Positions 12,398 to 26,577 of a stretch of DNA of 26,577 nucleotides are shown here, in pieces (position 1 is the first letter of the stretch; each line of letters begins with the position of its first letter). The position numbers and the translations under genes are program-made. The notes beneath the pieces are model-generated. The model searched no databases, had not been told where the DNA came from, and saw only the letters and a list, made by a program, of their open reading frames with translations. The DNA is from a virus (Duplodnaviria; Caudoviricetes), in the IMG/VR virus record IMGVR_UViG_3300002180_000056, positions 1 to 26,577 of that record, one strand, 5' to 3'.

Positions 12398-14431
12398 ATG
12401 GCATGGTCACCGATCAGCGGAACATTTATACAATACAGCGAAGATGACGTAGACGCGAGTAGCTACTACCTGAAGTTTTACGCCGCTGGAACTACTACGC
12501 CAATTGTAATGGCTACTGATAGCACGGGCGGCACCACACTTGATAAGTGCCAGCTAGACACCGACGGGATGCCGATAAACGGCTCAGGTGGTTATTTAAT
12601 ACCGTACATTGACCAAAAATATAAATTAGTAATCTATCGCAACTCAACCGATGCCGATGCAAATACATTTGCAAATGCGTATAAAGAGATTGACGATATT
12701 GATCCGTTTATTACCTCGGTATCGGCAACGCCTATCCTGGTTGCCACAGTTGCAGTTATGACAGCAGATACAACGGCCACTATCGGGGATTATTACCAGT
12801 GTGCTGATTACGATACAGGTAATGATGCAGGGGTTCTTATATTTGAAATGGTGGCCGTTGGTGGTACGGCGGATAATCTGGGAGCTTTGTTTGATCACGA
12901 CACACTAGCTTTGCAATGCAAGCGTATTTTTAATTCAGTTGTAAACATCAAAGAATTCGGCTACCCCGGTGATGGAACAGATGCAGCAGCAGCGATTACA
13001 GCAGCAATAGCAGCTAAAAACGAGCTTACAGCGGAAGGGTGCGATCAGATAGGACTTAGCTCAACAGTAACCGTAACAAAGCACACTACACTTGATTTGA
13101 CTAACGTGGGCGTAATTCCATTAGTTGACGTTGATATGTTCCACGTAAACGAAGGCGGTCAATTGAAAAACCTAGATGCGCTGACTAGTGGCATTACCTA
13201 CACAAGCGTGGTTTCAACTTTAAAGCCTGTTGCAAATATCAGAGGGGGGCAGTACCGAACGTGGTTGAAAAGCGCAGTTATAGAGCACGCATCGGGCGGA
13301 GCTGGAGACAGTGTGCTATTTGACGCTACGCTGTTCTATATTCAAGAATGCAACGCTACAGATGTCAGTGTGTACTGGGGCAATAAAGCCGTAGCTATGA
13401 CTGCGGGGGCCGGTAAGTATTGTAATGGTAATGTTGTGAATGGGCTAATCACTCACGACCCTGTTTACTCGATCTATGAAGCAGATACCACCGAGACCAT
13501 CCAGGGGAACGTCTACTCTAGTGTAATCCTAGAAGATAATCTTAATGGCGCAACAGTACAGCTTAATACGGGAGCAAAAGTTGACGGGCAATTGTGGGAT
13601 AGAGTTGCTGTTATATTTAAAGGCGACTTCAACGAAGTAACCTCGCCTATTGGACTATTTAATGATGAGCTTATTGATGAGGGCTATAACAACCGGATTC
13701 GCGGGCAAGACGTTGCTGCCTACGAGAACAAACGAACAATACTGAAGTTTAATGATTACCGGAATAATCTTGTTGGGCTACGTGGTCGCGGTGAGTACCG
13801 TGATGATTTCATGGCAGGTAAGCTGGGTAACGAGACATTAGTCAATGGAACTGGGACTACAGCTTTTCAAGCTATTGAGTACGGATCATCCGCAAAGGCT
13901 TACGCAGGAATGAGGTGTATACTCACTACCCTTACTACTGCTACAGATAGCATGGATATGAGATGGCAGGATACAGCACTGCGTACAGGCCATGACCCGA
14001 TATACCACTGCACTGCATATCTAAGTGAAACGGCGGATACAAAATACCAGTTTGGGTTCTATAGGGACTCAAACAACTATATTCTGTTTGAGTCAGACGT
14101 AACTGCCGGAACCATCACTCCGCGAGTAAAAGCTGGCGGGGTAGAGACGGCGGGCACAGCCGTATCGGTGACATTTGGTCGTGTTTTTTGGATGAGCATT
14201 GTGGTTACTAATGATGAGGTTATTTTCAACATCGGAGAGGCCGCTATCTCTAGTAATAATATGGGGGACGGTATTTATAATTTCTCCGATGAGCAGACAA
14301 TAACAACAAACATCCCGACCGCTGAGGTGTTGCAGCCAAGGACGTACGTTGAGACAGAAACAGCCGCAGCTAAACAGCTATCTGTGCTAGATGTTCATGT
14401 ATCTTGGTGTCATGGGTATCTAGTTCCGTAA
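12398..14431 (+). CDS. Tailspike / tail fibre (receptor-binding protein)
   Basis: N-terminal 'LKFYAAGTTTP' virion-binding domain, then 'VNIKEFG..GDGTD...AI.AAI' entry to a beta-helix; last gene of operon. Confidence 0.8.
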   Translation: MAWSPISGTFIQYSEDDVDASSYYLKFYAAGTTTPIVMATDSTGGTTLDKCQLDTDGMPINGSGGYLIPYIDQKYKLVIYRNSTDADANTFANAYKEIDDIDPFITSVSATPILVATVAVMTADTTATIGDYYQCADYDTGNDAGVLIFEMVAVGGTADNLGALFDHDTLALQCKRIFNSVVNIKEFGYPGDGTDAAAAITAAIAAKNELTAEGCDQIGLSSTVTVTKHTTLDLTNVGVIPLVDVDMFHVNEGGQLKNLDALTSGITYTSVVSTLKPVANIRGGQYRTWLKSAVIEHASGGAGDSVLFDATLFYIQECNATDVSVYWGNKAVAMTAGAGKYCNGNVVNGLITHDPVYSIYEADTTETIQGNVYSSVILEDNLNGATVQLNTGAKVDGQLWDRVAVIFKGDFNEVTSPIGLFNDELIDEGYNNRIRGQDVAAYENKRTILKFNDYRNNLVGLRGRGEYRDDFMAGKLGNETLVNGTGTTAFQAIEYGSSAKAYAGMRCILTTLTTATDSMDMRWQDTALRTGHDPIYHCTAYLSETADTKYQFGFYRDSNNYILFESDVTAGTITPRVKAGGVETAGTAVSVTFGRVFWMSIVVTNDEVIFNIGEAAISSNNMGDGIYNFSDEQTITTNIPTAEVLQPRTYVETETAAAKQLSVLDVHVSWCHGYLVP

Positions 14432-14532
14432 GCTGCCGCGCATTTAACAAAATTCAGCATTAGCGCAATAGCGGGATAGCGGGATATTCCGGCCTGATCT
14501 ATTTCCTCGTTAATAGTGATGGCCGGTCTTAT

Positions 14533-15132
14533 TTAACAGTATGGCTTTAATCCAGCATCCCTTAGAATCTTTCTAAATCGGACGATCTCGTTTTTAATGT
14601 CGGTGTAGTGCGGTAATTGCTCTTTTAATGGTTTATGCGGCCCGTTCAGCCAGTCTAAGTGATCCTGGCCGTACTTATCTATGATGAATAGCTCGTACTC
14701 CTTACGCTTGCCAGAGCCGTGCTGATTGCATTCAACTGAGCATTGCTTGTGAATATTGGTAAGTTCAAACCTTAGTTCGGGGCTACTGCCCCTGCTAATC
14801 ATGTGGCCAGCATCATACTTAACGGACTGGCTAGTTTTCCCGCAAGTGCAACACCCAAGATTCTTATCTCGGACATGTACTACCCACTGATTCACAAGCT
14901 TTTGATATTGGTTTAGCCAGTCCTGCCTGCGCTTAACCCGCTCCTTATCGTCCCTCTGCTTTGATCTCAGGGCTTTTGCGTTCCTCATGGCGTCATTGGC
15001 AGCCTTTTTGCGTGAAAGCCTCTGGCCGTACTGAGAGGCGCATTCAAAGCTATGAAACCAGTTAAGCTGAACCTTAATCATAACGTCACGATCAAAGCGG
15101 TCAGGGCAACCTTTGCACTTTAGTTTTGGCAT
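14533..15132 (-). CDS. ninG: NinG/Rap recombination endonuclease
   Basis: N-terminal CxxC, 'VRD...CCTCG...YDAGH..SRGSSPELRF...NIHKQC..CN..GSG'. Confidence 0.9.
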   Translation of the reverse strand: MPKLKCKGCPDRFDRDVMIKVQLNWFHSFECASQYGQRLSRKKAANDAMRNAKALRSKQRDDKERVKRRQDWLNQYQKLVNQWVVHVRDKNLGCCTCGKTSQSVKYDAGHMISRGSSPELRFELTNIHKQCSVECNQHGSGKRKEYELFIIDKYGQDHLDWLNGPHKPLKEQLPHYTDIKNEIVRFRKILRDAGLKPYC

Positions 15133-15141
15133 TATTTGTTT

Positions 15142-15366
15142 CTACAGTCCAGGGACCATTTGTTTATATGTCCACTTTCTCAAGTTGAGCGCATTATTGA
15201 TAAAGTTATCTGAAGGTTTGTATTTCTCGTCTAGCTCTCTCCAATTTTCTTGGCTAAATATATAATAAAGCGCCCTTTCAGAATGTTTTTCAGTTACACG
15301 GCCTCTTATTGATAGAAGAATAGATAGCACAAATATTGTTTGGCTTATCTCATAAAGCATTTCCAT
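15142..15366 (-). CDS. Hypothetical protein
   Basis: 74 aa, upstream GAGG RBS. Confidence 0.6.
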   Translation of the reverse strand: MEMLYEISQTIFVLSILLSIRGRVTEKHSERALYYIFSQENWRELDEKYKPSDNFINNALNLRKWTYKQMVPGL

Positions 15367-15433
15367 TTCAATATCCTCTTAGTTAATTAATTGGCTACAT
15401 TCACGGACGAGGGTAGCCGTCCCCGTTTAATGC

Positions 15434-15520
15434 TTATTGTCCATGTTTACCCTTTAATATCCTAATATGCGGAAAGTGCGGAAAGTGCGGAATGTGTGCC
15501 GCTTATTACCGCTGTTATAG
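15434..15520 (+). other. Array-proximal attI-like / degenerate attC site, copy 1
   Basis: Near-identical to 22975-23052; ends in core GTTATAG (15514-15520); three TGCGGAA(A/T)G direct repeats; inverted repeat TAATATGCGG/CCGCTTATTA. Confidence 0.65.
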
Positions 15521-15739
15521 GTCAGCGCTCATATAAAACGTGTGTTTCATCGCTGCGCCGTACCCTATGTGAGCCATAATGTCGCCAGGCATAAACCACT
15601 CACAAATCCATCCCTTATATTGATACTGGTAAGAAGGCGAGTAGTATATGTATTTAGGTTCTTGATGGTGTTCTTCACAGTATTTATCCCACGCTTTTTG
15701 CGCAGATCCGTTCTTTCTTGGTCTTTCAAAATACTCCAT
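15515..15739 (-). CDS. Cassette A1 ORF, hypothetical
   Basis: 74 aa; TAA stop lies in the core site GTTA. Confidence 0.75.
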   Translation of the reverse strand: MEYFERPRKNGSAQKAWDKYCEEHHQEPKYIYYSPSYQYQYKGWICEWFMPGDIMAHIGYGAAMKHTFYMSADL

Positions 15740-15746
15740 AAGTCAC

Positions 15747-15808
15747 CTATAACAAGGGCGCTGAAATTCGACTCCGCTACGCTGCGCGATTTAGCTGAAG
15801 CGTTAGCT
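15747..15808 (+). repeat. attC site A1 (62 bp)
   Basis: CTATAAC...GTTAGCT imperfect palindrome; three differences from 23859-23919 between the cores. Confidence 0.9.
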
Positions 15809-16003
15809 GTCTAAAAGCGCCTTCAAGTAATAGATAGGAACCATATCAATCATGCCGTCACTTATACGAACAAATATTGCACATGTTCTTGAATCCCCTC
15901 CTTTCGTGTAGCCATCAATATATCCGGCATCAAACTCCTTCAGCTCAGTTTGATGTATATCCCTAGTTAATTGCGCTATGGTTTTTCCTTTTGGTATTTT
16001 CAT
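15803..16003 (-). CDS. Cassette A2 ORF, hypothetical (66 aa, start revised)
   Basis: ATG at 16003 preceded by GGAGG; stop in core site. Confidence 0.7.
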   Translation of the reverse strand: MKIPKGKTIAQLTRDIHQTELKEFDAGYIDGYTKGGDSRTCAIFVRISDGMIDMVPIYYLKALLDS

Positions 16004-16018
16004 TATCGTAGCCTCCAC

Positions 16019-16077
16019 AGCTAACAAGAAATTCAAGCCGACCTCGTACCTCGGCGGTTTAATATTGGGCGTTATAA
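16019..16077 (+). repeat. attC site A2 (59 bp)
   Basis: AGCTAAC AAGAA ATTCAAGCCGAC...GCGGTTTAAT ATTGGGC GTTATAA; aadA-type 59-base-element layout with unpaired C and A on the + strand. Confidence 0.95.
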
Positions 16078-16236
16078 ATCATCATGCGCCCTATACTTCT
16101 TGGCAATAAACGCCCGTTCTACATGTATCATCACCGCCGCCCGATCCTTTGCCGGAACCTGCGTTTCGATATAGTTCCGGCGCTCTTCTCTTGATTTTAG
16201 TTTAAGGCACTGTAGCGCGTAGTGCCTCGGCCACAT
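16072..16236 (-). CDS. Small phage protein, 54 aa (not in ORF track)
   Basis: MWPRHYALQCLKLKSREERRNYIETQVPAKDRAAVMIHVERAFIAKKYRAHDDL; GGAG RBS; stop lies in the last core site of array A. Confidence 0.75.
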   Translation of the reverse strand: MWPRHYALQCLKLKSREERRNYIETQVPAKDRAAVMIHVERAFIAKKYRAHDDL

Positions 16237-16244
16237 TATCTCCA

Positions 16245-16580
16245 TCAGAATGCAATGTCGTCATCAAATTGATTTGGTGCTTGGTTTTGTTGATAGCTGC
16301 CCTGCTGCTGACCTTGCGCCGGTTGATTCTTGGTATTTTCCGAGTTCCAAAAAACATACATTTTTACAGGGCCGGTATGACCTAATGGCATAACGTCAAT
16401 TTCAACCTCTACATTTGGTGCGCTTGATCCCTGTCGAGCAGGCCATAGCGTAGCTCTGCCAACGGTCGCATATCGATTTTTCATTGCTGGCTGTCCGTTT
16501 TGCCCTGTCTGGCTGGTCTGGTACTTTTCAGCAATTACCGCTACACGGCCTTTGTCTAATGGTGCGTTGTTGTTTTGCAT
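16245..16580 (-). CDS. Putative single-stranded DNA-binding protein
   Basis: Short beta domain, Q-rich linker, acidic tail 'FDDDIAF'; near the Sak recombinase. Confidence 0.65.
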   Translation of the reverse strand: MQNNNAPLDKGRVAVIAEKYQTSQTGQNGQPAMKNRYATVGRATLWPARQGSSAPNVEVEIDVMPLGHTGPVKMYVFWNSENTKNQPAQGQQQGSYQQNQAPNQFDDDIAF

Positions 16581-16597
16581 GTTATTTCCCTCGTTAT

Positions 16598-16837
16598 TTA
16601 TGATTTGCTTTGTCGTTTTGAGTCTCTGGCTGCGCGACCACCGCGAGATCGTGACTTTTCAGCCATCTTCTTTTTCTCTTCGGCAGATATAGGGCCACCG
16701 TTCATTTTATCTAGCCTACGCTGAACATCAGGTGGTAGTACCTCTTTGATCTCTGTACTGCCTACCTTTTCAATCTTGCCGCCTTTGGCTTCAAACTCTG
16801 CTGTTTGTTTTTTAATCTCTTCACTGTCTACTGCCAT
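16598..16837 (-). CDS. Hypothetical protein
   Basis: 79 aa, 'AEFEAKGGKIEKV' motif, GAGG RBS. Confidence 0.65.
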   Translation of the reverse strand: MAVDSEEIKKQTAEFEAKGGKIEKVGSTEIKEVLPPDVQRRLDKMNGGPISAEEKKKMAEKSRSRGGRAARDSKRQSKS

Positions 16838-16848
16838 TACTATTCCTC

Positions 16849-17061
16849 CTAGTTACTCGTTGATCCACCGCGCACTAGAATAAGAAAAATAACCGCAACC
16901 CAGTAACTCCACAAGCTATGATCAATATAAAATTTAGAGCCTCCTAATTCTGCAAGGCTATTAATTGACCATAATAGCAATACAGGGCCAATCAAAAACA
17001 GCAAGCAAAAAAGCCATATAAGTGATCCAGCGCCTAAAACCATAGTGATAAATTCTTTCAT
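16849..17061 (-). CDS. Small membrane protein
   Basis: 70 aa, two hydrophobic segments, GAGGAG RBS. Confidence 0.7.
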   Translation of the reverse strand: MKEFITMVLGAGSLIWLFCLLFLIGPVLLLWSINSLAELGGSKFYIDHSLWSYWVAVIFLILVRGGSTSN

Positions 17062-17080
17062 TGCTGATACTCCTCGTTAT

Positions 17081-17362
17081 TTAATATTCTTTATCACAAA
17101 TAGAGCAAAATGTATAACTATTGCCCATGCTTGTTTTTGTAATCATATCGTGTGGGTATCCGTTAAGCTCACAACAGGGTGCCGTGTGATATGCGCCGCT
17201 GGTATGCTCTGTCCTTACCCCTCGCTTACCGTAGAACTTGTGACCACACTCCCCGCATTCAAGCTCATGCCGTCTATTTGGGGTCATTGGGCCTGGTGTA
17301 TGCACTCGCCTGCAATAAGGGCAAACTGGCTTATCAATATTAAATACGTCGGTATAGGTCAT
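17081..17362 (-). CDS. Cys-rich (zinc-ribbon-like) protein
   Basis: CPYC, CGEC and CSIC motifs. Confidence 0.65.
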   Translation of the reverse strand: MTYTDVFNIDKPVCPYCRRVHTPGPMTPNRRHELECGECGHKFYGKRGVRTEHTSGAYHTAPCCELNGYPHDMITKTSMGNSYTFCSICDKEY

Positions 17363-17841
17363 TACTTAATCCTTAAGCTAGGTTTACTTACACCAAGTTC
17401 CGCCCCGTCTACACTGCCAGCCTTTAACGCTTCAAGCAATGCGCGCTTATCGATAGATTTAACTATTTTTTCGTTAGTGAATTTACCTAGTTTCTTTTCG
17501 TCTGTGATCGTCACAACCTGTCGGCCTTTCACCCTAGAAACTTTGAATAAATCAAATTCGTGCTTTTCTCCATCCTCCATATTCATCACAAGCCATTCCT
17601 TAGTTCTTAGCACGGCTTTTTCTTTAGAGTCTGATAGCTCTTTAAGCCTGTCAATTTCAGCTTTGATTACTACAGAGTCAGATTCAAGGCAGTTGATCAC
17701 AAAAGCACATGATTCGATCTTCTTATCACGAGCCTCTGATATACCACTCAAATGATCATCAACATCCTGCATGGTTAGATCGGTGTTTTCGACCAGCTCC
17801 AATATGCCCTGCTGCTCTTGTGTTAGTTCGCGTAAATTCAT
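17362..17841 (-). CDS. Siphovirus Gp157-family protein (start revised to 17841)
   Basis: 'KIESCAFVI..LE....IKAEIDRL', 'IDK..L..ALKAG.VDGAEL....LRIK'; ATGA overlap with the Sak gene. Confidence 0.8.
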   Translation of the reverse strand: MNLRELTQEQQGILELVENTDLTMQDVDDHLSGISEARDKKIESCAFVINCLESDSVVIKAEIDRLKELSDSKEKAVLRTKEWLVMNMEDGEKHEFDLFKVSRVKGRQVVTITDEKKLGKFTNEKIVKSIDKRALLEALKAGSVDGAELGVSKPSLRIK

Positions 17842-18389
17842 TTTACTTCTTCCCCTTTTGGTTTTCGCTGCCCCCACTGAAACCGAACCATCCCAGTAGT
17901 ATCTTTTGCGGCCAGCCAGTTTAATTTGTTTTCTGTGAACTCTGAATACCAGTGCCATTCCTTCAACTTTAGGTCGTATGACTGCTTAGGCTTCTTATTG
18001 CCGTCCATGTACCATTCGTTGTCTTTTAGCTTCAACTCTATAACTGGGTAGTCGTAAAGCTCCCTACCTATACCCCAATTAAAGCAAGCCCGCTTGAATG
18101 AGTCACTAGCCAGCCCTTTAGCTGCCTCGGTATTTGATTCTGTGCCAGTATCTTCTTTCTGCACCCACTCTTTTTTTTCATCGCACCATATCGATACCAC
18201 GCAATTATGGTTGCCGTTTGTGTGCCTGCGCTGCCAGTTTGTCGGCCCTACAGCCTCATCTAAGCGTTGCTGGTCAACCCTAGCGTCTTTGTAAGCCAGT
18301 ATAACTGCGTACCCGCTCTTCTTAATCCGCTGAACTCTAAAGTCTATCTGGTTGGCTGATAGCGGATCAGTTAAGTTTTCTATTGCCAT
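17838..18389 (-). CDS. Rad52/22-family (Sak-like) single-strand annealing protein
   Basis: 'LAYKDARVDQQRLD..VGP.NWQ', 'KGLASDSFKRACFNWGIGRELYDYP'. Confidence 0.9.
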   Translation of the reverse strand: MAIENLTDPLSANQIDFRVQRIKKSGYAVILAYKDARVDQQRLDEAVGPTNWQRRHTNGNHNCVVSIWCDEKKEWVQKEDTGTESNTEAAKGLASDSFKRACFNWGIGRELYDYPVIELKLKDNEWYMDGNKKPKQSYDLKLKEWHWYSEFTENKLNWLAAKDTTGMVRFQWGQRKPKGEEVK

Positions 18390-19191
18390 TGTAAAGTTCC
18401 GTTATTGTCTTTTGCGTTTTTCTTTGTTCGGCCTCGTACTGGTGGCTGTATCCATCGTTGTACGGTTTAGATTTTTCGGTATGCGGTATCCCGTCTTTGC
18501 AATCCCTTATGCCTTGTAGATAATCCTCTAGATCGCTCATTTGTAATGCCCTTTTTTCGTCTTTTTTGATTAAACCGTTGGTGGTGTGCTCTAAATTATT
18601 ATCAATCACATATTGATCGTAGGCTTTTGCTGCTTCTAGCTTATCTTTATGCCGACCAAGATAGATGGTCTTGCTATTTACAGTGATTTCTGCTTTCCAC
18701 TTGCTGCTTGACTTGTCAAAAAAAACCCCGCGATATCCGCTGGTGTTGGTTGCAATCAATATCCTTTTGTTTCGCTGTTGAACAGATTGCGTTGTAAACC
18801 TGCAATTATCAGGATCGTAATTTCCGTCATTGTTGATTCGATCAATTGTTAGGTCGTCGTTGTAGCCGTTAGATTCAGCCCATCCACGAAACGCTGCGAA
18901 ATCATACCATTCATCACAAATCTTGATTCCACGCCCTCCGTGGCTTTTATAAGACCGATGGTTTTCATTGTTGCAGCGCTGCTTAATGTTACTCCATGTT
19001 TTATACAGTCGTGTTCCGACCCCGCCGTGGGTGATGTTGACACACGACTTACATGATTCCGATATAAGCCCGCTATGAATCCTAACCTCGCAGCTTGTCG
19101 TGCAAACCGGACAGAGGAAAAGGCCATACCTAGACTTTTGCTTAGATGTCGCGGTTGCATATCGCATGTCTAGCTTTTTGATTAGTTGCAT
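18367..19191 (-). CDS. HNH-AP2 homing endonuclease, in frame with a 57 aa downstream ORF
   Basis: 'GGRGIKICDEW', 'LTIDRINNDGNY.P.NCR', AP2-type 'NTSGYRGV...W.A.I....YLG.....EAAKAYD'. Confidence 0.88.
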   Translation of the reverse strand: MQLIKKLDMRYATATSKQKSRYGLFLCPVCTTSCEVRIHSGLISESCKSCVNITHGGVGTRLYKTWSNIKQRCNNENHRSYKSHGGRGIKICDEWYDFAAFRGWAESNGYNDDLTIDRINNDGNYDPDNCRFTTQSVQQRNKRILIATNTSGYRGVFFDKSSSKWKAEITVNSKTIYLGRHKDKLEAAKAYDQYVIDNNLEHTTNGLIKKDEKRALQMSDLEDYLQGIRDCKDGIPHTEKSKPYNDGYSHQYEAEQRKTQKTITELYNGNRKLN

Positions 19192-19222
19192 CTTAGAACC
19201 CTATCCCTCTATCGGATGAACA

Positions 19223-19588
19223 TTAGCTAAACCGCCACTGATTCGCTTCAACCCCTTTTTTGACTTCATGCTGTATCGATTCAACAAGCCGCTTTGCTGC
19301 CAAAGCCAATGTAATAATTTCTCTTTCGGTCATATCTGCAATAGTTTTATCTGTCTCGCATTCGCACAAAAGAGATAAGAGTTTCACGCACCATGGGGTT
19401 TCATTAAGTACCTCAGCCAGCAGATCTGAATCATCCCCGCCCATTAGCCGGTCGGTTATTTCATCAATACGTTCCTGTTCCGCCTGCTCTCGCTCTTCAT
19501 CGCTCATAAGGCTCCTTTGCTTTGCTTCAGACTCTTCTAGTTGGCTATAGTAGTCGTTGGTGTCTCGGTTTACTCGGTCAATTTCCAT
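19223..19588 (-). CDS. Hypothetical protein
   Basis: 121 aa acidic, in the minus-strand gene train. Confidence 0.65.
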   Translation of the reverse strand: MEIDRVNRDTNDYYSQLEESEAKQRSLMSDEEREQAEQERIDEITDRLMGGDDSDLLAEVLNETPWCVKLLSLLCECETDKTIADMTEREIITLALAAKRLVESIQHEVKKGVEANQWRFS

Positions 19589-19590
19589 AG

Positions 19591-19956
19591 CTAATCAACC
19601 TCTAAAGGAAATACGTTGGTTAGCCCTGCATCAGATTGATTGCGCCTTGCTTCGTACATGCGCTTACGGGCACCATTGCTAAGGTCTACCCTTTCCATGC
19701 TTGATAGGTAGAGTGGGCTTTCAGATGGCTCTACGTCGTTCTCAGATTGGATTTGATCCTCCCAGCGTCTTGGGCCAACTATAGCCCTTGCTTCGTGTGT
19801 CTCGCGGCATTCAGCTTGAGATCGGATCAGGTTTTCTAGTGAGTTAACTTTTAGGGTTAGCTTGTGAACTTGACGATCTCGATCTGCCAATTGCTGCTCT
19901 AACTTGCGGATGGTTGCTTTCATTTTCTCTTGCCTCGTTAGTTCCTCTTGATACAT
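19591..19956 (-). CDS. Hypothetical coiled-coil protein
   Basis: 121 aa, heptad-like N-terminus. Confidence 0.65.
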   Translation of the reverse strand: MYQEELTRQEKMKATIRKLEQQLADRDRQVHKLTLKVNSLENLIRSQAECRETHEARAIVGPRRWEDQIQSENDVEPSESPLYLSSMERVDLSNGARKRMYEARRNQSDAGLTNVFPLEVD

Positions 19957-20117
19957 CTTGCGCTAGTTATAGTGTCAATTTCGTTTGACTGGATGCGGTA
20001 TTTTGTCTCTTGCTCGTGCTTAAATCCGTAATTCTCCAGAACTTCTTTTATAGCTCCCTCAAAAAGGCCGCCAGGAAGCTCGACCATAACAACATCACCC
20101 GCCTTGTAAGGCTTCAT
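19938..20117 (-). CDS. Hypothetical protein (59 aa, start revised)
   Basis: MKPYKAGDVVMV...; ATGA overlap with upstream ORF. Confidence 0.6.
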   Translation of the reverse strand: MKPYKAGDVVMVELPGGLFEGAIKEVLENYGFKHEQETKYRIQSNEIDTITSARCIKRN

Positions 20118-20287
20118 TTCTGAAGCCTCATCTCTGCCAGCGTTGCGTCTATGCACTCTTTAACCATCACTCTGACTTTCTTGCTGTGCGTATCATAATG
20201 AAGGCCCATTGTGCTATTGAACGCTTCTTCAACAAGCTCTGGAGTTGCGTTATCTTCTGTAAGAATGATGAATTTGTCGTTTTTCAT
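20114..20287 (-). CDS. Hypothetical protein, 57 aa (not in ORF track)
   Basis: MKNDKFIILTEDNATPELVEEAFNSTMGLHYDTHSKKVRVMVKECIDATLAEMRLQK. Confidence 0.65.
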   Translation of the reverse strand: MKNDKFIILTEDNATPELVEEAFNSTMGLHYDTHSKKVRVMVKECIDATLAEMRLQK

Positions 20288-20330
20288 TTTCTAGTTTCTC
20301 TTTAGTTAGTGTCTTTGTGTGTATGGGTTT

Positions 20331-20374
20331 AGTATACACGCATATATAGAGAGCGGTAGCTTTTTATGTGTCTA
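20331..20374 (-). promoter_or_regulatory. Leftward promoter/operator, copy 1
   Basis: -10 TATACT (20331-20336); 13 bp TATACACGCATAT shared with 26508-26520; weak -35. Confidence 0.5.
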
Positions 20375-20567
20375 TGTTAGATCGGATTGGTATATCGTTA
20401 TACTTAAAATAACTAGACCTCATGTAATAGTCACACGTAACCACGCCTTTGATAGTGACTGGCTTGAATATAGAATATGACTGCACGCAACCTGGCGTAG
20501 CGTTAAACCGATAGCAGGTTTTGGATAGCTCGCAGTCTTTGTTTTCGCACATTGAAATATCAGGCAT
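20364..20567 (-). CDS. Small Cys-rich phage protein
   Basis: 'MPDISMC...C.L...CYRF.A.P...QSY'; AAGGAG RBS. Confidence 0.7.
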   Translation of the reverse strand: MPDISMCENKDCELSKTCYRFNATPGCVQSYSIFKPVTIKGVVTCDYYMRSSYFKYNDIPIRSNIDT

Positions 20568-20759
20568 GGTTTGGCTCCTTAGTGATTATTACCGCCCTTT
20601 CATTTGATCCCCGTAGGTAGTCAAATTACTAAGCTCCCCTAGTCCTGTAAACAGGCTTCAAATAGATAACGGACAGTTTGGCGGTGTTGTCCCGTCTAGT
20701 GTTATCAGCTTTTTGTCAGCTTTTTTGAACGGCGGCCACTAACTAGGGCTATGTTTGCT

Positions 20760-20788
20760 TTGATCTTTTACGATTGGCGCATTATACT
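20760..20788 (+). promoter_or_regulatory. Sigma70-like promoter, antisense to the early arm
   Basis: TTGATC-17 bp-TATACT. Confidence 0.6.
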
Positions 20789-20794
20789 AACGGC

Positions 20795-20931
20795 CATTGA
20801 CGCTAGGAGGTTCGGTCCTTCGTCAAACAGGTTGTCTTGTAAACAACCGAGATAGAAGTTTAACCCAACCGGCTGAGATATGCCAATTAGACTTTTATCG
20901 CATCTAAGCCAGTTTAATCGCTGGCTTTTTT
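20795..20931 (+). ncRNA. Putative antisense small RNA of about 135 nt
   Basis: Bounded by promoter and terminator; hairpins at 20797-20826 and 20830-20848; no ORF. Confidence 0.5.
20906..20931 (+). terminator. Rho-independent terminator
   Basis: AAGCCAG-TTTAATCG-CTGGCTT followed by a T run. Confidence 0.7.
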
Positions 20932-21035
20932 GTGTCTCGTTATTATGGTTTGCCCCTCCAGCCCTTCCCTGGATACGTTTTCGACGCTATTGTAGCCAAT
21001 AGACTTACGCGCTATTCGGGCCTTAATCTTTGCTT

Positions 21036-21236
21036 CTATATGTTCGGCTCATGGAACAGATTGTTGTTTTTAAGTTTAATGATTTCGTCCGGCGTAACCC
21101 CAAGCTTTATAAGCTCAAGAACTGGGATACCTTCGCTTCCTTTATCAAACCCCTCCATGCCGCTAAAATAGCTTACTAGGCCGTTTTTGTCAGTTATAGC
21201 GCCCGTTTCTTTATCGTATTCAAATATTGTTTTCAT
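21036..21236 (-). CDS. Hypothetical protein, paralogue of cassette ORF 25419-25619
   Basis: Both 66 aa; share Y...TGAITD.NG and G.T...II.LK. Confidence 0.75.
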   Translation of the reverse strand: MKTIFEYDKETGAITDKNGLVSYFSGMEGFDKGSEGIPVLELIKLGVTPDEIIKLKNNNLFHEPNI

Positions 21237-21385
21237 TCAGTTATATCCTCTATTTTGTCAGCCAACGGCTTATCTGGCCTATCCGCACAAAACTCACAGC
21301 CTGGATTACCGCACTGCGGCTCAGTCCACTCATTAGTATCATCATCATAATAAGCATCGTACTTTTCACTTCGTTTGATTGTCAT
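21233..21385 (-). CDS. Small Cys-containing protein, 50 aa (not in ORF track)
   Basis: MTIKRSEKYDAYYDDDTNEWTEPQCGNPGCEFCADRPDKPLADKIEDITE; ATGA overlap. Confidence 0.7.
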   Translation of the reverse strand: MTIKRSEKYDAYYDDDTNEWTEPQCGNPGCEFCADRPDKPLADKIEDITE

Positions 21386-21553
21386 TTAACTATCCCTCTC
21401 TTCAAGTAGCTCTACAATCCGCGCTAAGTGGTAAAACAAAATACAAGCACCAGTAACAGCGAGTAGAACTAAAGATTCTAGTTGTCCATCAACAAATATA
21501 TTTAACGCTGAAACGGCAACAGCCAAAATAATCCATAATGCTTTAGTTTTCAT
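21386..21553 (-). CDS. Small membrane protein, 55 aa (not in ORF track)
   Basis: MKTKALWIILAVAVSALNIFVDGQLESLVLLAVTGACILFYHLARIVELLEERDS; GGAGG RBS. Confidence 0.7.
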   Translation of the reverse strand: MKTKALWIILAVAVSALNIFVDGQLESLVLLAVTGACILFYHLARIVELLEERDS

Positions 21554-21713
21554 TAATCACCTCCACATCGTCCTTAAAGATGATATTGATATGTCCCGCT
21601 GGCTCCCTAGCCCAAAAAAACTCACTGCATTCCCTTTCTACTTCAACGGTTTTACCAAGCATCTTGGCGTACCACGTATGATTGTACTTGCTCTTTTTTA
21701 TTCGTACTTTCAC
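21543..21713 (-). CDS. Hypothetical protein, 56 aa (not in ORF track)
   Basis: GTG start overlapping the HNH stop; MKVRIKKSKYNHTWYAKMLGK...WAREPAGHINIIFKDD. Confidence 0.65.
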   Translation of the reverse strand: MKVRIKKSKYNHTWYAKMLGKTVEVERECSEFFWAREPAGHINIIFKDDVEVINEN

Positions 21714-22375
21714 AGTCTATCCAAAGAATTAATTAATCCGTTTGTAGTGTGCTCTAGGTTATTGTCGATGACGTAAGCGTCATAGGTTTTGGCGGCTTCT
21801 AGGGCTTTCTCAAAATAGCCGATATGGATCACCTTGCTATCAACACTGATTTGAACGCGCCATTTATTTTGTGGCTTGTCAAAGCTTACTCCGCGATAAC
21901 CGCTTGTATTATTAGCCCTTAATCGCCTAGTGTTTCTGGATTGAACCGACTGCGTGGTAAGCCTGCAATTGCCTGGGCAGTAGTCACCATCGTTATCAAT
22001 ACGATCAATTTTAAGGTTGTCTAAATAACCATTAGCTAAAGACCAGTCACGGAACAGGTCGAAATTGATCCATTCATCACAAACTTTTATTCCACGACCG
22101 CCATAACAACTATAATCAGAGTTGTTTACGTTGTTGCATCGTTGATTCATACCCTTCCATATTTTATATAACCTAGTGCCAGTTCCTCCGTGTTTTGAGA
22201 AACGCTTACCAGTAGCAATCGCAGCGCACGGCTTGCATGATTTCGCTCTAAGCCCACTATGAATAACAACTTCCACGCTTGTCGTGCAATCTGAGCAAAG
22301 AAATAAACCATAACGACGCTTTTGCGCGCTTAATTCTGTCGGGAAACGCATGTCGAGCTTTTTGATTAATTGCAT
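21710..22375 (-). CDS. HNH-AP2 homing endonuclease
   Basis: 'YGGRGIKVCDEW', 'IDRIDNDGDY.PGNCR', 'NNTSGYRGV'; paralogue of 18367-19191. Confidence 0.9.
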   Translation of the reverse strand: MQLIKKLDMRFPTELSAQKRRYGLFLCSDCTTSVEVVIHSGLRAKSCKPCAAIATGKRFSKHGGTGTRLYKIWKGMNQRCNNVNNSDYSCYGGRGIKVCDEWINFDLFRDWSLANGYLDNLKIDRIDNDGDYCPGNCRLTTQSVQSRNTRRLRANNTSGYRGVSFDKPQNKWRVQISVDSKVIHIGYFEKALEAAKTYDAYVIDNNLEHTTNGLINSLDRL

Positions 22376-22384
22376 TTGAATAAT

Positions 22385-22481
22385 CTCCAGTCACGGATTA
22401 ATCAGTCGAAGTGTTGCGCCAATGGGTGACTGAATTCCCATGTTTCGGCCTGCATTGCCTAGGCGCACAACCATTATAGCA
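22385..22481 (-). ncRNA. Structured leader with extended -10 promoter (c4-antisense-like)
   Basis: TGCTATAAT; closing stem TGCGCC/GGCGCA; hairpin loop TCAGTCA(C) complementary to two downstream sites, one overlapping the GGAG RBS. Confidence 0.55.
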
Positions 22482-22483
22482 GC

Positions 22484-22960
22484 CTATTCAGCATCAGAAA
22501 ACGCTCGAAGCGCGATTCTCACCCCTTTGCTGCGATTCCCTTTGCCAATCTCTGTCGCTAGTTTAGCGTCACTATCCGCCATGATGATGTTGTGGGGGAA
22601 CATTGCATCACCCCTATTCAATACCGGCTTGTGCTTCTTGGCTGTTACTTTACGCTGGAAAACTTCCGTAATGTAATTTTCTATATATTCTTTAAGCGTA
22701 CCATGCTTTAGCTTTTTCATCTCAACTCTAGGCTTAAATACAAAGCCATCGAAGTCAGGGTATTGATGCTTGTTGGCTTCAATGTAATTGTTTAGATACC
22801 CCTCAAGAAACTCAATTACCTCTACAGCAGTGGCCCTGTCGTAAATAGGATATTTACCTTCTGTATTGGCTAGGTACGCCATCACTCTATAATCCAGCTT
22901 GATGCCGGTCTCTTTCTCAAACTGCCTTTTGAAGTCAGGCATTGCTTCATGTTTCATCAT
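22484..22960 (-). CDS. Hypothetical protein, possible C-terminal DNA-binding module
   Basis: 158 aa; basic stretch followed by 'LATEIGKGNRSKGVRIAL' (ribbon-helix-helix-like, inference). Confidence 0.55.
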   Translation of the reverse strand: MMKHEAMPDFKRQFEKETGIKLDYRVMAYLANTEGKYPIYDRATAVEVIEFLEGYLNNYIEANKHQYPDFDGFVFKPRVEMKKLKHGTLKEYIENYITEVFQRKVTAKKHKPVLNRGDAMFPHNIIMADSDAKLATEIGKGNRSKGVRIALRAFSDAE

Positions 22961-22974
22961 TCTGTATTACCTCG

Positions 22975-23052
22975 TTATTTTCCATGTTTTGGCTTTAATA
23001 TCCTAATATGCGGAAAGTGCGGAATGTGTGCCGCTTATTACCGCTGTTATAT
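22975..23052 (+). other. Array-proximal attI-like / degenerate attC site, copy 2
   Basis: Matches 15434-15520 apart from 4 substitutions at the left end, one fewer 9 bp repeat and the last core base; ends GTTATAT (23046-23052). Confidence 0.65.
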
Positions 23053-23463
23053 GGCTGCCACTCCTAATAATCCAGCGCCTAAACTACCGAAACCTTGACG
23101 CATCGTTGTGTTCATTGTTGCCGCCTGTCTTTGCAATTCTACTAGCCTCCTTTGCTCTGAAAAAACATCATAATTAACAGCTGGGCCATCCTTTATTATG
23201 CCAACCCCTTTCATGGCATTTACTAGTAAATCGGCCTCGGTCTGCTCTCTAACCATATTCTTTAATTTGTTGCGTTCTGTTTCTATTTTGCAAGCCGCTT
23301 CTTTTATCCTGTCCACCTCTTTGTCTAAAACGGCTACGCGATCAAGTAAATCAGCATTATTGCCATTAGCATCGTTTATTTGTTCACTTAGCTCATCGTT
23401 ACTTTTTGTTAGCCGTTTTACCTCAGCTTTAATCTCTCTCTTTCCTTTAAAATACATAATCAT
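23047..23463 (-). CDS. Cassette B1 ORF, coiled-coil protein
   Basis: 138 aa; stop in core site. Confidence 0.75.
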   Translation of the reverse strand: MIMYFKGKREIKAEVKRLTKSNDELSEQINDANGNNADLLDRVAVLDKEVDRIKEAACKIETERNKLKNMVREQTEADLLVNAMKGVGIIKDGPAVNYDVFSEQRRLVELQRQAATMNTTMRQGFGSLGAGLLGVAAI

Positions 23464-23471
23464 ATCCCGCC

Positions 23472-23534
23472 ATATAACAAGGTGTTGAAAAATGGACGGG
23501 CAAAAGCGCCCGCCTTTTAACTTAAGCGTTATAC
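23472..23534 (+). repeat. attC site B1 (63 bp)
   Basis: ATATAAC...GGACGGGCAAAAGCGCCCGCC...GTTATAC. Confidence 0.9.
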
Positions 23535-23834
23535 GGCTTCGCCGCAGTATGAAACAGAAAGCCCACTACTACCCTCAACCTTGCATTGTGCATCATTGAA
23601 TAGTGTTGTTATGTCTGTGCTTTTTGGTACTGCGTCATACCAGTAAGGGCTGAACGGTGGTCGCCATCGATCCCGATCGATAACAATTGGACAAGAGGGG
23701 ATATGAGTTTCTTTAACACCAAACAGCGAATCAAGCTGCTCGTACAGCTCCCTGGCTTCGGTAATGGTCAGCTCAACCTCATTGCCGCTTTTGGTTTCCA
23801 GTGCGATCTTTGTTAGTTTAAGTTTCTTGCTCAT
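23529..23834 (-). CDS. Cassette B2 ORF, hypothetical (101 aa, start revised)
   Basis: MSKKLKLTK... with GGAG RBS; the longer ORF-track start runs through the attC into the next cassette. Confidence 0.75.
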   Translation of the reverse strand: MSKKLKLTKIALETKSGNEVELTITEARELYEQLDSLFGVKETHIPSCPIVIDRDRWRPPFSPYWYDAVPKSTDITTLFNDAQCKVEGSSGLSVSYCGEAV

Positions 23835-23858
23835 TTTCGTGTCTCCAAGTTTTGCGCC

Positions 23859-23919
23859 GTATAACAAGGCGCTAAAATTCGACTCCGCTACGCTGCGCGA
23901 TTTAGCTAAAGCGTTATAT
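23859..23919 (+). repeat. attC site B2 (61 bp)
   Basis: GTATAAC...GTTATAT; near-duplicate of attC A1. Confidence 0.9.
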
Positions 23920-24135
23920 GGCTTCAATTTGCACATTTTTAGCCCATGATGTACCGTCAATAGCCATTGAAGTTATGAAATATAAATTACTATCTACGTG
24001 TAAAATTATCTCTTCTTTATCGGTTCCTGCATTAAGTATTTGCTCTGCGTTATAAGAAATGCGTTCGCCTTCGTAAGTGACTTTCAGCTTGTCGCCTTCT
24101 TTAATCTGTCCTGCATATAACAAGTCATTCAACAT
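23914..24135 (-). CDS. Cassette B3 ORF, hypothetical
   Basis: 73 aa; ATG and GAGG RBS lie inside attC B3. Confidence 0.75.
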   Translation of the reverse strand: MLNDLLYAGQIKEGDKLKVTYEGERISYNAEQILNAGTDKEEIILHVDSNLYFITSMAIDGTSWAKNVQIEAI

Positions 24136-24187
24136 CGCTCGTTCCTCGCTTGGACGGCTTCGCCGCCAGTTAATTAAGGCGTTATAT
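24115..24187 (+). repeat. attC site B3 (73 bp)
   Basis: ATATAAC AAGTC ATTCAAC...GTTAAT TAAGGC GTTATAT. Confidence 0.9.
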
Positions 24188-24412
24188 TGCCTTGCTGCCT
24201 AGCCAGTTATTTTTTAGCCCCAAGTACCAGCTATACGTATAAAATATTGTTAACATTAAAATACCCCACTGCTCTGCGGTATACGCTGAATAAAACCAAA
24301 ACGGCTGGCCCGCCAACCCAAACAAGCAGGCATATTTTTTCCACGCCTCCTTGCTTTGCTGTGTAAGCCAAATTGCCAAACCTCCGGTTATTGCTATTGC
24401 TAGTTGCTCCAA
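24182..24412 (-). CDS. Cassette B4 ORF, small 3-TM membrane protein (PnuC/SemiSWEET-like half transporter, tentative)
   Basis: 'FGLAGQPFWFY......QWGI', three hydrophobic segments; TTG start with AAGGAG. Confidence 0.6.
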   Translation of the reverse strand: MEQLAIAITGGLAIWLTQQSKEAWKKYACLFGLAGQPFWFYSAYTAEQWGILMLTIFYTYSWYLGLKNNWLGSKAI

Positions 24413-24430
24413 AACCTTCTCCTTAATTTA

Positions 24431-24490
24431 ATATAACAAGGTTCATCAAGCCGATTCGCTACACTCACGGCTTATTAACGGGCGTTAGGC
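24431..24490 (+). repeat. attC site B4 (60 bp)
   Basis: ATATAAC...ATCAAGCCG...CGGCTTAT...GTTAGGC. Confidence 0.9.
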
Positions 24491-24616
24491 GCCTAAAAAT
24501 AGGCCGATATTCAATCCAGCAATAATCCCGTTAATAGCGTCAATGGGGCTGCCACCAAAACCGGCTAATGCTAAATAGGCAAAAACAACACCAACACCCA
24601 AGTTTAAAAACTTCAT
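24485..24616 (-). CDS. Cassette B5 ORF, 43 aa hydrophobic peptide (not in ORF track)
   Basis: MKFLNLGVGVVFAYLALAGFGGSPIDAINGIIAGLNIGLFLGA; GAGG RBS; stop in core site. Confidence 0.75.
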   Translation of the reverse strand: MKFLNLGVGVVFAYLALAGFGGSPIDAINGIIAGLNIGLFLGA

Positions 24617-24638
24617 TTTTTACCTCATGCGCCGTAGC

Positions 24639-24698
24639 GCCTAACAAGAAATTCAAGCCGACCTCGCAAGCTCGGCGGTTTAATATTGGGCGTTATGT
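24639..24698 (+). repeat. attC site B5 (60 bp)
   Basis: GCCTAAC...GTTATGT; identical to attC A2 between the cores except at the apical loop. Confidence 0.95.
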
Positions 24699-25028
24699 TG
24701 CTTTAATCATAAAGCGCGGCTTTTCACATAAAGCGTTTATATTCACTAGCTGCTTCAATAGGTGCGCTCTCACCGGATCTTCGTGGTATTGCCTTTCCGC
24801 CTTTCTAATCTCGTTAGGGCTTGGTTCAATATTCCACCCACACTCAAATAATTCAGCCTTAATTTTTTTCAGCAAAAAAGCCTCATACTCACGTAGCATT
24901 GCTTCTGCTTGTTCAATTAATAGTCTATGCTCCGGTTCAACGTATGGTGGCAACATAACAAGGCGTTCGTTCAGACCTGCTACTGCGTCGGTTTTTTCTG
25001 GTTCGGCGGTTTGCTTATCTTCTTTCAT
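24693..25028 (-). CDS. Cassette B6 ORF, hypothetical
   Basis: 111 aa; start and GAGG RBS inside long attC B6. Confidence 0.7.
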   Translation of the reverse strand: MKEDKQTAEPEKTDAVAGLNERLVMLPPYVEPEHRLLIEQAEAMLREYEAFLLKKIKAELFECGWNIEPSPNEIRKAERQYHEDPVRAHLLKQLVNINALCEKPRFMIKAT

Positions 25029-25080
25029 TTTCCAAAATCCTCATGTAATTTCCGCAGGCTGCACAACTAAAGCGTTATGC
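24953..25080 (+). repeat. attC site B6 (128 bp, long variable terminal region)
   Basis: ACATAAC AAGGC GTT(C)GTTCAG(A)CCTGC...GCAGGCTGCACAAC TAAAGC GTTATGC. Confidence 0.85.
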
Positions 25081-25383
25081 GCCAATAGCGCCAATTTTAT
25101 CAATGTAATATTGGACTCTTTCAGTTGTTAAATAACCAACAACAGAATCACCGCTATCTTCTTCATCAATAAATTTTTCATCACTAGGCATTATTTCAAA
25201 CAACCCCTCATCACCACCATAGGAATATTGTCCTCTTATAATACTTAATGAATGCCCGTTTTTAAAATACACTCTGGCTCTAGCCATGCCATTAATTGGG
25301 TCGCTGACATCATCCACATGGTCAATAGTGTCTACGCATAACAATGCGTTTAACTCGGATTCGTCACTCTTCGCTTCGCTCAT
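25075..25383 (-). CDS. Cassette B7 ORF, conserved phage-type hypothetical protein
   Basis: 'F.NG..LSII.G.YSYGGDEGLFEI....V.GYLT'; start inside attC B7. Confidence 0.75.
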   Translation of the reverse strand: MSEAKSDESELNALLCVDTIDHVDDVSDPINGMARARVYFKNGHSLSIIRGQYSYGGDEGLFEIMPSDEKFIDEEDSGDSVVGYLTTERVQYYIDKIGAIGA

Positions 25384-25416
25384 TATTCCTCTCCGGTTAA
25401 CTAAATTGCGTTATAT
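25336..25416 (+). repeat. attC site B7 (81 bp)
   Basis: GCATAAC AATGC GTTTAACTCGG...CCGGTTAAC TAAATTGC GTTATAT. Confidence 0.85.
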
Positions 25417-25418
25417 GG

Positions 25419-25619
25419 CTAAATTATTTCCCTACTCTTCAGCGCAATAATATCTTCAGTTGTAAAACCTGCATCCTTCAGCTTTACAATTCCTTCCACT
25501 CCTTTGCCGTTTTGTGCTTTTGTTTCGTGTTGCTCTAGTCCAGGCCAGATGCAAATCATAATGCCGTTGTTGTCTGTAATAGCCCCTGTAGATTGCTCAT
25601 AATTTAGTTCAATTTTCAT
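25419..25619 (-). CDS. Cassette B8 ORF, paralogue of 21036-21236
   Basis: 66 aa; AAGGAG RBS. Confidence 0.75.
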   Translation of the reverse strand: MKIELNYEQSTGAITDNNGIMICIWPGLEQHETKAQNGKGVEGIVKLKDAGFTTEDIIALKSREII

Positions 25620-25640
25620 TCCTGTTTCTCCTTAATCGCC

Positions 25641-25702
25641 TTATAACAAGGCGTTCAAAATCCGACCGCAAAAAGCGCGACGGTTTAACTAAAGCGTTAA
25701 AC
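25641..25702 (+). repeat. attC site B8 (62 bp)
   Basis: TTATAAC AAGGC GTTCAAA...GGTTTAAC TAAAGC GTTAAAC. Confidence 0.9.
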
Positions 25703-26203
25703 ATTACGTTCTAAATAAACTCCGCGATCGCTCATCCGCCCCAAAGCTTCCGAGCATTCATTTCCGAATGCGAACATCACGGTACCGGCAGCACTTCGGC
25801 TTTGTTTGTGCTGGTTTTCTTTGCCTGGTATGAACTGGATCCGCCCTCCTAGAAATAGCATAGATGCGCATGATTTCATTGCCTCCTGGCACCAGGCTGC
25901 GTCTGTCCGGCTAAATACGAGAGCTACCCCGTTACCATGCGCTATCATTCTGCGGATCCAAAAAGGCGTCTCTTTGCCATACGGCGGATTAAGCCATACC
26001 CGACCGAGCCACTCTTTGCTAAGCCCATCATCAAACACAGTGAGCTTGGTTTTAGCTGGTACCGCCGTCTCCATATCGTGTGGTGATGATGGATCCAGAT
26101 CGAAAGTTATCGCCAACTCTTCAAAAATCCATGCAGGCGTGTACCACTCCGCGCTCTTGTGAGTATTTTTAGCTGCTGATTTATTTGTAAAAAGTCCGTC
26201 CAT
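25697..26203 (-). CDS. Cassette B9 ORF, phage-type DNA N6-adenine methyltransferase
   Basis: 'EWYTP', 'FDLDP', 'DDGL...W.GRVWLNPPYG', 'SRTD..W', 'GRIQF'. Confidence 0.9.
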   Translation of the reverse strand: MDGLFTNKSAAKNTHKSAEWYTPAWIFEELAITFDLDPSSPHDMETAVPAKTKLTVFDDGLSKEWLGRVWLNPPYGKETPFWIRRMIAHGNGVALVFSRTDAAWCQEAMKSCASMLFLGGRIQFIPGKENQHKQSRSAAGTVMFAFGNECSEALGRMSDRGVYLERNV

Positions 26204-26215
26204 TCGTCACCAAAT

Positions 26216-26270
26216 GTTTAACAAGTCGTCAATCGGACGGCTACGCCGCCGCTTACTTTAGGCGTTACTC
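26216..26270 (+). repeat. attC site B9 (55 bp), last of array
   Basis: GTTTAAC AAGTC GT(C)AATCGG(A)CGGC TAC GCCGCCGCTTAC TTTAGGC GTTACTC. Confidence 0.9.
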
Positions 26271-26468
26271 AAACAACCCTCTAGCCTTACCGCACTCATT
26301 ACACTGCTTTGATGCTGAGTGACTCATAGCCACCAGAATCCAGATAGGAACCCAAATACCTACCGTAATAACGGATAGGATAAGGTGTAGGATATGGCTG
26401 GTGCTTTATGCCACATGTGCAGTGATTTTATTGCAGTGTCGGCACTTTTTCATAATCATGTTAGACAT
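26265..26468 (-). pseudogene. Zinc-ribbon plus transmembrane small protein with an internal stop
   Basis: MSNMIMKKCRHCNKITAHVA*STSHILHLILSVITVGIWVPIWILVAMSHSASKQCNECGKARGLFE; in-frame TAA at 26406-26408; GAGG RBS. Confidence 0.7.
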
Positions 26469-26505
26469 GGGTGTATCCTCGTTGTTTTCGTTTGTCTTGC
26501 TATTC

Positions 26506-26550
26506 AATATACACGCATATTTATACAATACAACCATTTTGCGTGTTTAT
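26506..26550 (-). promoter_or_regulatory. Leftward sigma70-like promoter/operator reading into array B
   Basis: TTGTAT (26528-26533)-16 bp-TATATT (26506-26511); overlapped by inverted ACACGCA/TGCGTGT. Confidence 0.55.
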
Positions 26551-26577
26551 TTTATATTCCTTCGCTTTCGCGTTGGT

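Follow-up and report, generated by a model that had tools for sequence, protein, structure and literature searches.

The phage genome analysed here carries integron-type gene cassettes that are built back to front: the gene lies opposite the top strand of its attC site and stops at the G/TTA of the crossover, and in three cassettes (B3, B6 and B7) a ribosome binding site (RBS) and ATG inside the attC are likely to be the real start of the gene. We consider this reading, which includes excision and insertion of the cassettes by an integron integrase (IntI) of the host, to be probable. The anatomy and orientation of the cassettes, their boundary at the right-hand G/TT and the reuse of start-bearing sites on unrelated genes are directly visible in the DNA, in a phage from which a recombinase gene is absent. 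A broader proposal, that phages run a reversed cassette pool of their own on host integrases and that new cassettes arise by fusion of a start-bearing attC, through the G/TT of its R'', into the opening codons of a phage gene, is put forward only tentatively.

The window (the whole stretch under study, 26,577 nt) covers 26.6 kb of the phage and includes genes for a major head protein, NinG, an Erf-like annealing protein (17838-18389) and HNH endonucleases. Two of the HNH genes (18367-19191 and 21710-22375, minus strand) are a related pair, 74–93% alike in parts. A 39,596 bp record rated 100% complete (G001) is identical to the window across the 7,500 bases compared, and a profile search of this complete genome gave no match to the PF00589 tyrosine recombinase or TIGR02249 integron integrase models. 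The intI gene by which a complete integron is defined is absent from G001, and the site clusters are CALINs by definition (at least two clustered attC sites without intI). The array is present in a DNA run labelled marine metagenome, and among the runs listed there was no RNA run carrying it. Over positions 14400-26577, the contigs of two runs (X1 and X2) show loose ends and joints at site borders, many of them short-sided and possibly from other organisms; X1 is possibly the source sample, and no argument below draws on these contigs. An annotated phage collection held no records for B3 and B6, three partial ones for B7 and one for the array DNA, matches so few that no cultured relative or host can be named from that collection.

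Eleven attC-like sites occur in the window, two in array A and nine in array B, all with their top strand on the plus strand, and G001 as a whole has three arrays of nine, two and three sites (B, A and C). Six sites of the window score at least 14 in the attC scan, against 0.1 per shuffled window (20 shuffles); B7, which has a 7-nt spacer and T rather than C as the extra base, scores below 14. Array A (15434-16077) comprises a head repeat, with its G/TT at 15514, and sites A1 (15747-15808) and A2 (16019-16077), with the genes on the minus strand. Array B opens with its own head repeat and continues with sites B1 (23472-23534), B2 (23859-23919), B4 (24431-24490), B5 (24639-24698) and B8 (25641-25702), all heading genes that start outside the site, the start-bearing B3, B6 and B7, and B9 (26216-26270), whose cassette gene (25697-26203, minus strand) encodes a Dam-type adenine methyltransferase (PF05869). 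The three start-bearing sites are the longest, as the earlier note had observed, at 73 (B3), 128 (B6) and 81 bp (B7); the other eight measure 55–63 bp.

In a canonical cassette, the gene lies on the attC top strand and ends at R'', and the site is made up of the boxes R''/L''/L'/R'. None of the 11 window cassettes has this layout, and all 11 genes are on the minus strand, which is the attC bottom strand. At 12 of 13 junctions the stop codon is a TAA supplied by the TTA that directly follows the G of G/TT, and the gene at the remaining junction stops 8 nt earlier. In the gene that stops on the last G/TTA (26265-26468, minus strand), codon 20 is followed by an in-frame TAA, likely to be a nonsense mutation, which G001 shares. 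The R'' and R' boxes (RYYYAAC / GTTRRRY) are complementary within the cassette over 8, 10 and 8 contiguous nt in B3, B6 and B7, and the L''/L' boxes of B3 (ATT(C)AAC/GTTAAT) and B6 (GTT(C)G../..CAAC) fit inverted boxes with an extra C on the top strand. The terminal loops of the three sites have a bottom-strand purine fraction of 0.70 (B3), 0.66 (B6) and 0.73 (B7), compared with 0.39–0.64 in the other eight. As regards a Pc promoter reading into the array, no plus-strand sigma-70-like site is listed in 22900-26577, and the genes face the head; on the minus strand of this region there are seven such sites, against 7.9 expected.

Once a cassette has been excised as a circle, the partner of R'' has to be the R' at the opposite end of that cassette. 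Across 14 cassettes (the 11 of the window and the three of array C, the three head cassettes included), the R'' side always pairs longer with the left-hand R' (6–11 nt) than with its own right-hand R' (4–7 nt), a count that does not depend on where the genes start. Each cassette is therefore bounded by two successive G/TT positions and contains the site that heads its gene, so that the right-hand boundary proposed in the earlier note stands, and on grounds independent of the starts. On the plus strand, the extra base and the 5/6-nt spacers match the published top strands of aadA7 and PH101. All three arrays open with one conserved head repeat ending in CCGCTG/TTA (15434-15526; 22975-23058, with the G at 23046; and L037 9330-9395 for array C). 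Because this repeat precedes each array and pairs with the first cassette, it probably marks an insertion point, and it may have a role like that of attI. It contains the inverted repeat TAATATGCGG ... CCGCTTATTA, and as an exact 22-mer it is found in no other viral contig. It also resembles an attC with AAT instead of AAC as the left core, and is possibly an attI derived from an attC.

An RBS motif and an in-frame ATG inside B3, B6 and B7 had been described in the earlier note, and both were recovered on the minus strand of each site. In attC B3 (24115-24187, plus strand), GAGG at 24147-24144 is spaced 8 nt from the ATG at 24135, which opens a gene of 73 aa (23914-24135, minus strand) whose stop, TAA, is complementary to the TTA that follows the G/TT at 23913; seven codons lie inside the site. 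The B6 gene (24693-25028, minus strand, 111 aa) begins at the ATG at 25028, 10 nt from the GAGG at 25042-25039, within attC B6 (24953-25080, plus strand), and stops on the G/TTA at 24692; the estimate of about 25 codons inside this site proved exact. For B7 (attC 25336-25416, plus strand), GGAGAGG at 25394-25388 precedes the ATG at 25383, 16 codons lie inside the site, and the gene (25075-25383, minus strand, 102 aa) stops on the G/TTA at 25074. All three frames cross L''/R'' on their way into the gene. In B3, no in-frame start follows R'' in the early part of the gene, and in B7 there is none with an RBS between R'' and the conserved core.

Relatives of these genes outside cassettes show what the site has added. 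The check proposed by the earlier note, for non-cassette homologues without the N-terminal extension, gave short natural starts, as in a B3 homologue (L012, 77%) that begins MNKLTLPGQ and has no site near either end; short starts are found in 11 of 16 B3 homologues, database starts being gene-caller calls with a bias towards long ORFs. The short natural B6 homologues begin 4–7 residues ahead of LPP (eight clear cases among 61, judged by eye), and in the predicted model of B6 residues 21–30 form a strand while residues 1–17 are of low confidence; together these suggest that the attC-coded RLVM would occupy the place of the natural first strand. Residues 1–17 of B6 and 1–8 of B7 are predicted to be disordered, and most of the leader may be a variable tag of that kind, with the last 5–10 residues (from L''/R'') replacing the natural first strand or helix. 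Homologues of B7 without sites occur in L004, L024, L026 and L028, and in L022/L023 all that is present of a site is its L''-R'' half, which lies behind a different RBS, at a locus that looks like a decayed cassette. At L022 1983-2282, a repeated RBS module (gcagaaatata..ggag) precedes the B7 homologue and recurs after the stop codon of the gene. A or T as the last residue, which R-box pairing requires, is found in all ten members of the B7 family that have long leaders and in 3 of 13 without the motif; P0031, a member of this family, has the motif although the pattern missed it, and ends in Q. A B3-family protein (P0043, 86%) carries a B7-type leader, and in L021 a long leader lies in an attC-like stretch that the attC scan left unscored.

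As for function, the B3, B6 and B7 proteins have no Pfam or NCBIfam match, and a single weak PHROG match was found, for B7 (phrog_4074). Foldseek searches against viral models gave one match at E<=0.001 for B7, to an uncharacterised protein, and none for B6. The first cassette of array C (L037 9429-9674, outside the window) encodes a Thoeris anti-defence 2-like (Tad2) protein (PF11195, E 9e-23).

The same start-bearing sites recur at the head of unrelated genes. Site C2 (array C, G001) is identical to B3 at 71 of 73 bases and heads an unrelated gene of 76 aa, MLNDLLCCKQCG. A 22-base B3 pattern that required the ATG and GAGG, and in which the conservation of these two elements among B3-type sites is thus built in, but which set no condition on frame or ORF length, retrieved 15 viral and 11 genome stretches. 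Duplicates (L123 of L120 and L125 of L114), one contig that ends in the gene (L117) and 8 of the 11 genome matches, which are Opitutales repeats without attC arms, were dropped. The B3-type sites then head 15 distinct complete genes (two in this genome, ten in other viral contigs and three in bacterial assemblies), no two of which match each other at blastp E<0.01. From the in-site ATG, all 15 stay open in the same frame for 51–181 codons, 12 stop on a GTTA boundary, and in eight the 75 nt following R'' contain no in-frame ATG or GTG. As 12 of 29 genes with outside starts share that frame, the chance of finding it in the 13 foreign genes is about 1e-5. One of the 15 encodes a DUF1643 protein. 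No sense gene was found ahead of a B3-type site, and the likeness among these sites ends at the TAAC of R'', which is G/TT on the bottom strand. Each of the three bacterial assemblies encodes an IntI above the cut-off; the cassette in L130 sits among phage-like genes and adjoins an integrase-like ORF. The repeat of the Opitutales assemblies (L128-L138), which lacks attC arms, shares AACATCGCTCGTTCCTCGCT with the B3 loop.

Reuse is seen for the other sites as well. Seven B7-type stretches were found: the one in this genome, four from one gene family that have the in-site ATG in the same frame, and two from one gene (L141/L142) with a shorter B7-like site that lacks it. The last gene has a GTG with an RBS after R'', so this family of sites does not always provide a start. 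For B6, the homologue in L002 (57%) likewise has its start within a site, a different one of 124 bp that is read in the same frame, and in L066/L126 an unrelated gene is headed by a site resembling B6 (75% over 59 nt). Within the phage genome, sites are reused almost unchanged (A1/B2, A2/B5, B3/C2 and B8/C3). The last 18 bases of the B6 gene (24693-24710; MIKAT and stop) are also those of the unrelated C2 gene (L037 9772-9789), and tails at the stop end may therefore be reused as the sites are. The portable start module imagined in the earlier note is borne out insofar as starts lie inside sites and one start-bearing site is found on unrelated genes; ordinary excision, however, keeps the site with its own gene, and the module could pass from one gene to another only during the building of a cassette or a swap of its site.

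Two further claims concerned the peptides encoded across the sites and the folding of the hairpin. The ORFs do read through L''/R'' to give LNDLLY, LNERLVM and LNALLC, but the likeness of these peptides is not evidence of translation. B3 and B7 cross R'' as TTG-TTA-TRY (L-L-Y/C) and B6 as GTT-ATG (V-M), in a different frame, and sites without a start give the same peptide when read in the first frame (B8 ILNALL*, B2 FSALLY, B9 IDDLLN), so that it reflects the DNA consensus of attC; the motif was rejected as evidence of translation for this reason. It is usable as a protein marker even though it is a DNA consensus. The suggestion that hairpin folding tunes translation was likewise not supported, and folding was rejected as a translational control: the opening energies of the in-site starts (11.2, 3.9 and 11.4 kcal/mol) overlap those of the eight outside starts (5.8–12.7) without a pattern. 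In the circle form the bottom strand folds better than the top in 10 of 11 sites, and its R box pairing probability (0.76 in B3, 0.95 in B6 and 0.24 in B7) exceeds that of the top strand in all three; as linear DNA the sites fold no better than shuffled ones.

A survey of viral arrays, made from two attC pattern scans of viral contigs together with L002 and L014 and judged by a crude longest-ORF rule, yielded 104 cassettes between adjacent sites at 34 loci. In one record 15 of 16 cassettes are sense, showing that the rule can see ordinary arrays, and 67 of the remaining 88 (31 loci) are antisense. Among the 46 antisense cassettes with a stop at the junction, the start lies inside the site in 6 and outside in 21, is compatible with both options in 3 and is unclear in 16. 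By length, no inside start was found at the eight sites of at most 70 bp, and four (plus three with both options) at the 14 sites above 100 bp. On these counts, in-site starts go with long sites and are in the minority, whereas the reversed layout is general.

Two alternative readings bear on the anatomy of the cassettes and on their starts. An ordinary array read on the minus strand, in which the site belongs to the upstream gene, the crossover is at the left, and shuffling joins leaders to new genes combinatorially, would account for genes that stop in an RYYTAAC motif and are followed by a gene beginning after GTTRRRY, as ordinary cassettes do, and for one leader on many genes. We give it almost no credence, since the extra base and spacers match the top strands of aadA7 and PH101 on the plus strand, the end pairing favours the right-hand G/TT in all 14 cassettes, and the head repeats stand at the left and pair with the first cassette. 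Nor is it at all likely that the real starts lie downstream of or within R'' and that the leaders are frames that happen to be open and into which gene callers have extended the genes. The in-frame ATG at 24956 in B6 would suit such a reading, as would leaders that vary in length and sequence and are predicted to be disordered at their ends. This ATG, which the earlier note had named as a start that would count against its own claim, has no RBS (−2.7 compared with −6.1 kcal/mol), and its Met is replaced by I or T in four of nine homologues bearing the attC-type motif; a start there would also lose the 4–7 residues that short homologues keep before LPP. Ahead of the conserved core, neither B3 nor B7 offers a downstream ATG preceded by an RBS, and the frame is fixed in all 15 B3-type genes.

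A third alternative accepts the in-site starts but regards the sites as homology linkers, with the annealing protein of the phage swapping genes or whole sites via the conserved arms, and IntI having little or no present part. The phage does encode an Erf-like annealing protein and no IntI, its sites are reused almost unchanged, the B7-type leader of P0043 points to sites having been swapped on one gene, and the B6 and C2 genes have a stop-end tail in common. A match between R'' and the left-hand R' in every cassette, however, matters only for a folded circular intermediate, and the placement of stops on G/TT and the better folding of the bottom strand in circle form also argue against linkers, so that we regard this explanation as unlikely. 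For the step in which a site is first joined to a gene, site swapping by the annealing protein is the main alternative.

Under the reading preferred here, an integron integrase of the host, acting in trans, would excise the cassettes and insert them at the three head repeats, the start would travel with its own gene, and the reversed layout would suit a phage in which transcription enters each array from the far end. A new cassette would arise when a site is joined, at the R'' G/TT, to a phage gene within its opening codons. The natural Met would be lost in the process, and a new RBS and ATG would come from the bottom strand of the loop, which is rich in purines. attC sites in general have a purine-rich bottom strand, and top-strand recombination at R'' occurs at a low rate (Nivina 2016, PMC5027507); IntI can also join attC to non-att genomic sequence (attG), inside genes too, as Loot et al. 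describe (bioRxiv 10.1101/2022.09.11.507474). Together with the end of likeness at TAAC, these suggest fusion of the site into first codons. The attG sites are reported there for cassette insertion via the bottom strand, and an attG-like use of R'' may be a candidate for the join made when a new cassette is built. [quoted passage not shown] Capture at a GTT alone does not account for the 8–11 nt pairing of the gene ends; that pairing would need later selection or templating.

In these arrays, one attC is joined at a fixed point to many unrelated phage genes, and non-cassette relatives (up to 77% identical) exist, so that the states before and after can be compared. The formation of new integron cassettes is listed as an outstanding question in the literature (PMC8618304). 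If fusion at R'' is correct, the attC-coded leader would be a visible scar of cassette genesis, the parent genes would be in databases, and the origin of cassettes could be tested directly. The recombination hairpin would be under a second constraint, as RBS and coding sequence. The arrays also suggest that phages lacking an integrase may rely on the IntI of their hosts for shuffling accessory genes, among them those for a methyltransferase and a Tad2-like anti-defence protein. Software built on the assumption that the attC lies at the end of its gene will pair such cassettes with the wrong site.

The sites have the features of canonical attC given in PMC5027507, namely R''/L''/L'/R' boxes, an extra-helical base, unpaired spacers, a variable terminal loop, a purine-rich bottom strand and a G/TT crossover. 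Unlike in canonical cassettes, the genes here are encoded by the bottom strand, with their start at or within the site and their stop at the crossover, and the loop is coding. A search for papers on reversed or translated phage attC sites found none (subscription papers, bioRxiv supplements and the figures of Qi 2023 lay outside its scope). A parallel is provided by ORF-11 in attI1 and the short ORFs inside attC, which lie on the top strand and help the cassette that follows to be translated (PMC8876359). There, as here, a recombination site supplies an RBS and start to a cassette gene lacking its own; those ORFs act mostly by translational coupling and depend on array position, whereas the site here is the gene's own, is joined to it in frame on the bottom strand and would move together with it.

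Phage CALINs have been reported, and five of six phage sites recombined with IntI1 (Qi 2023, PMC9892861). Like the arrays here, these CALINs consist of several attC sites separated by small genes, include a cassette for a DNA methyltransferase and lack intI, and the PH101 sites, which are among those that recombined with IntI1, are of the same style as the present ones. The PH101 array is called typical in that paper, and the words 'antisense', 'opposite' and 'start codon' do not occur in its available text. In the H101 record (L152, 75536-77991), three sites located there are on the plus strand and the annotated gene to the left of each is on the minus strand, so the reversed layout is already present in a published phage. 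The three H101 genes start 56–99 nt outside their sites, whereas B3, B6 and B7 start inside, and unlike PH101 the phage described here has three arrays with a common head repeat, stops on the crossover and starts inside sites.
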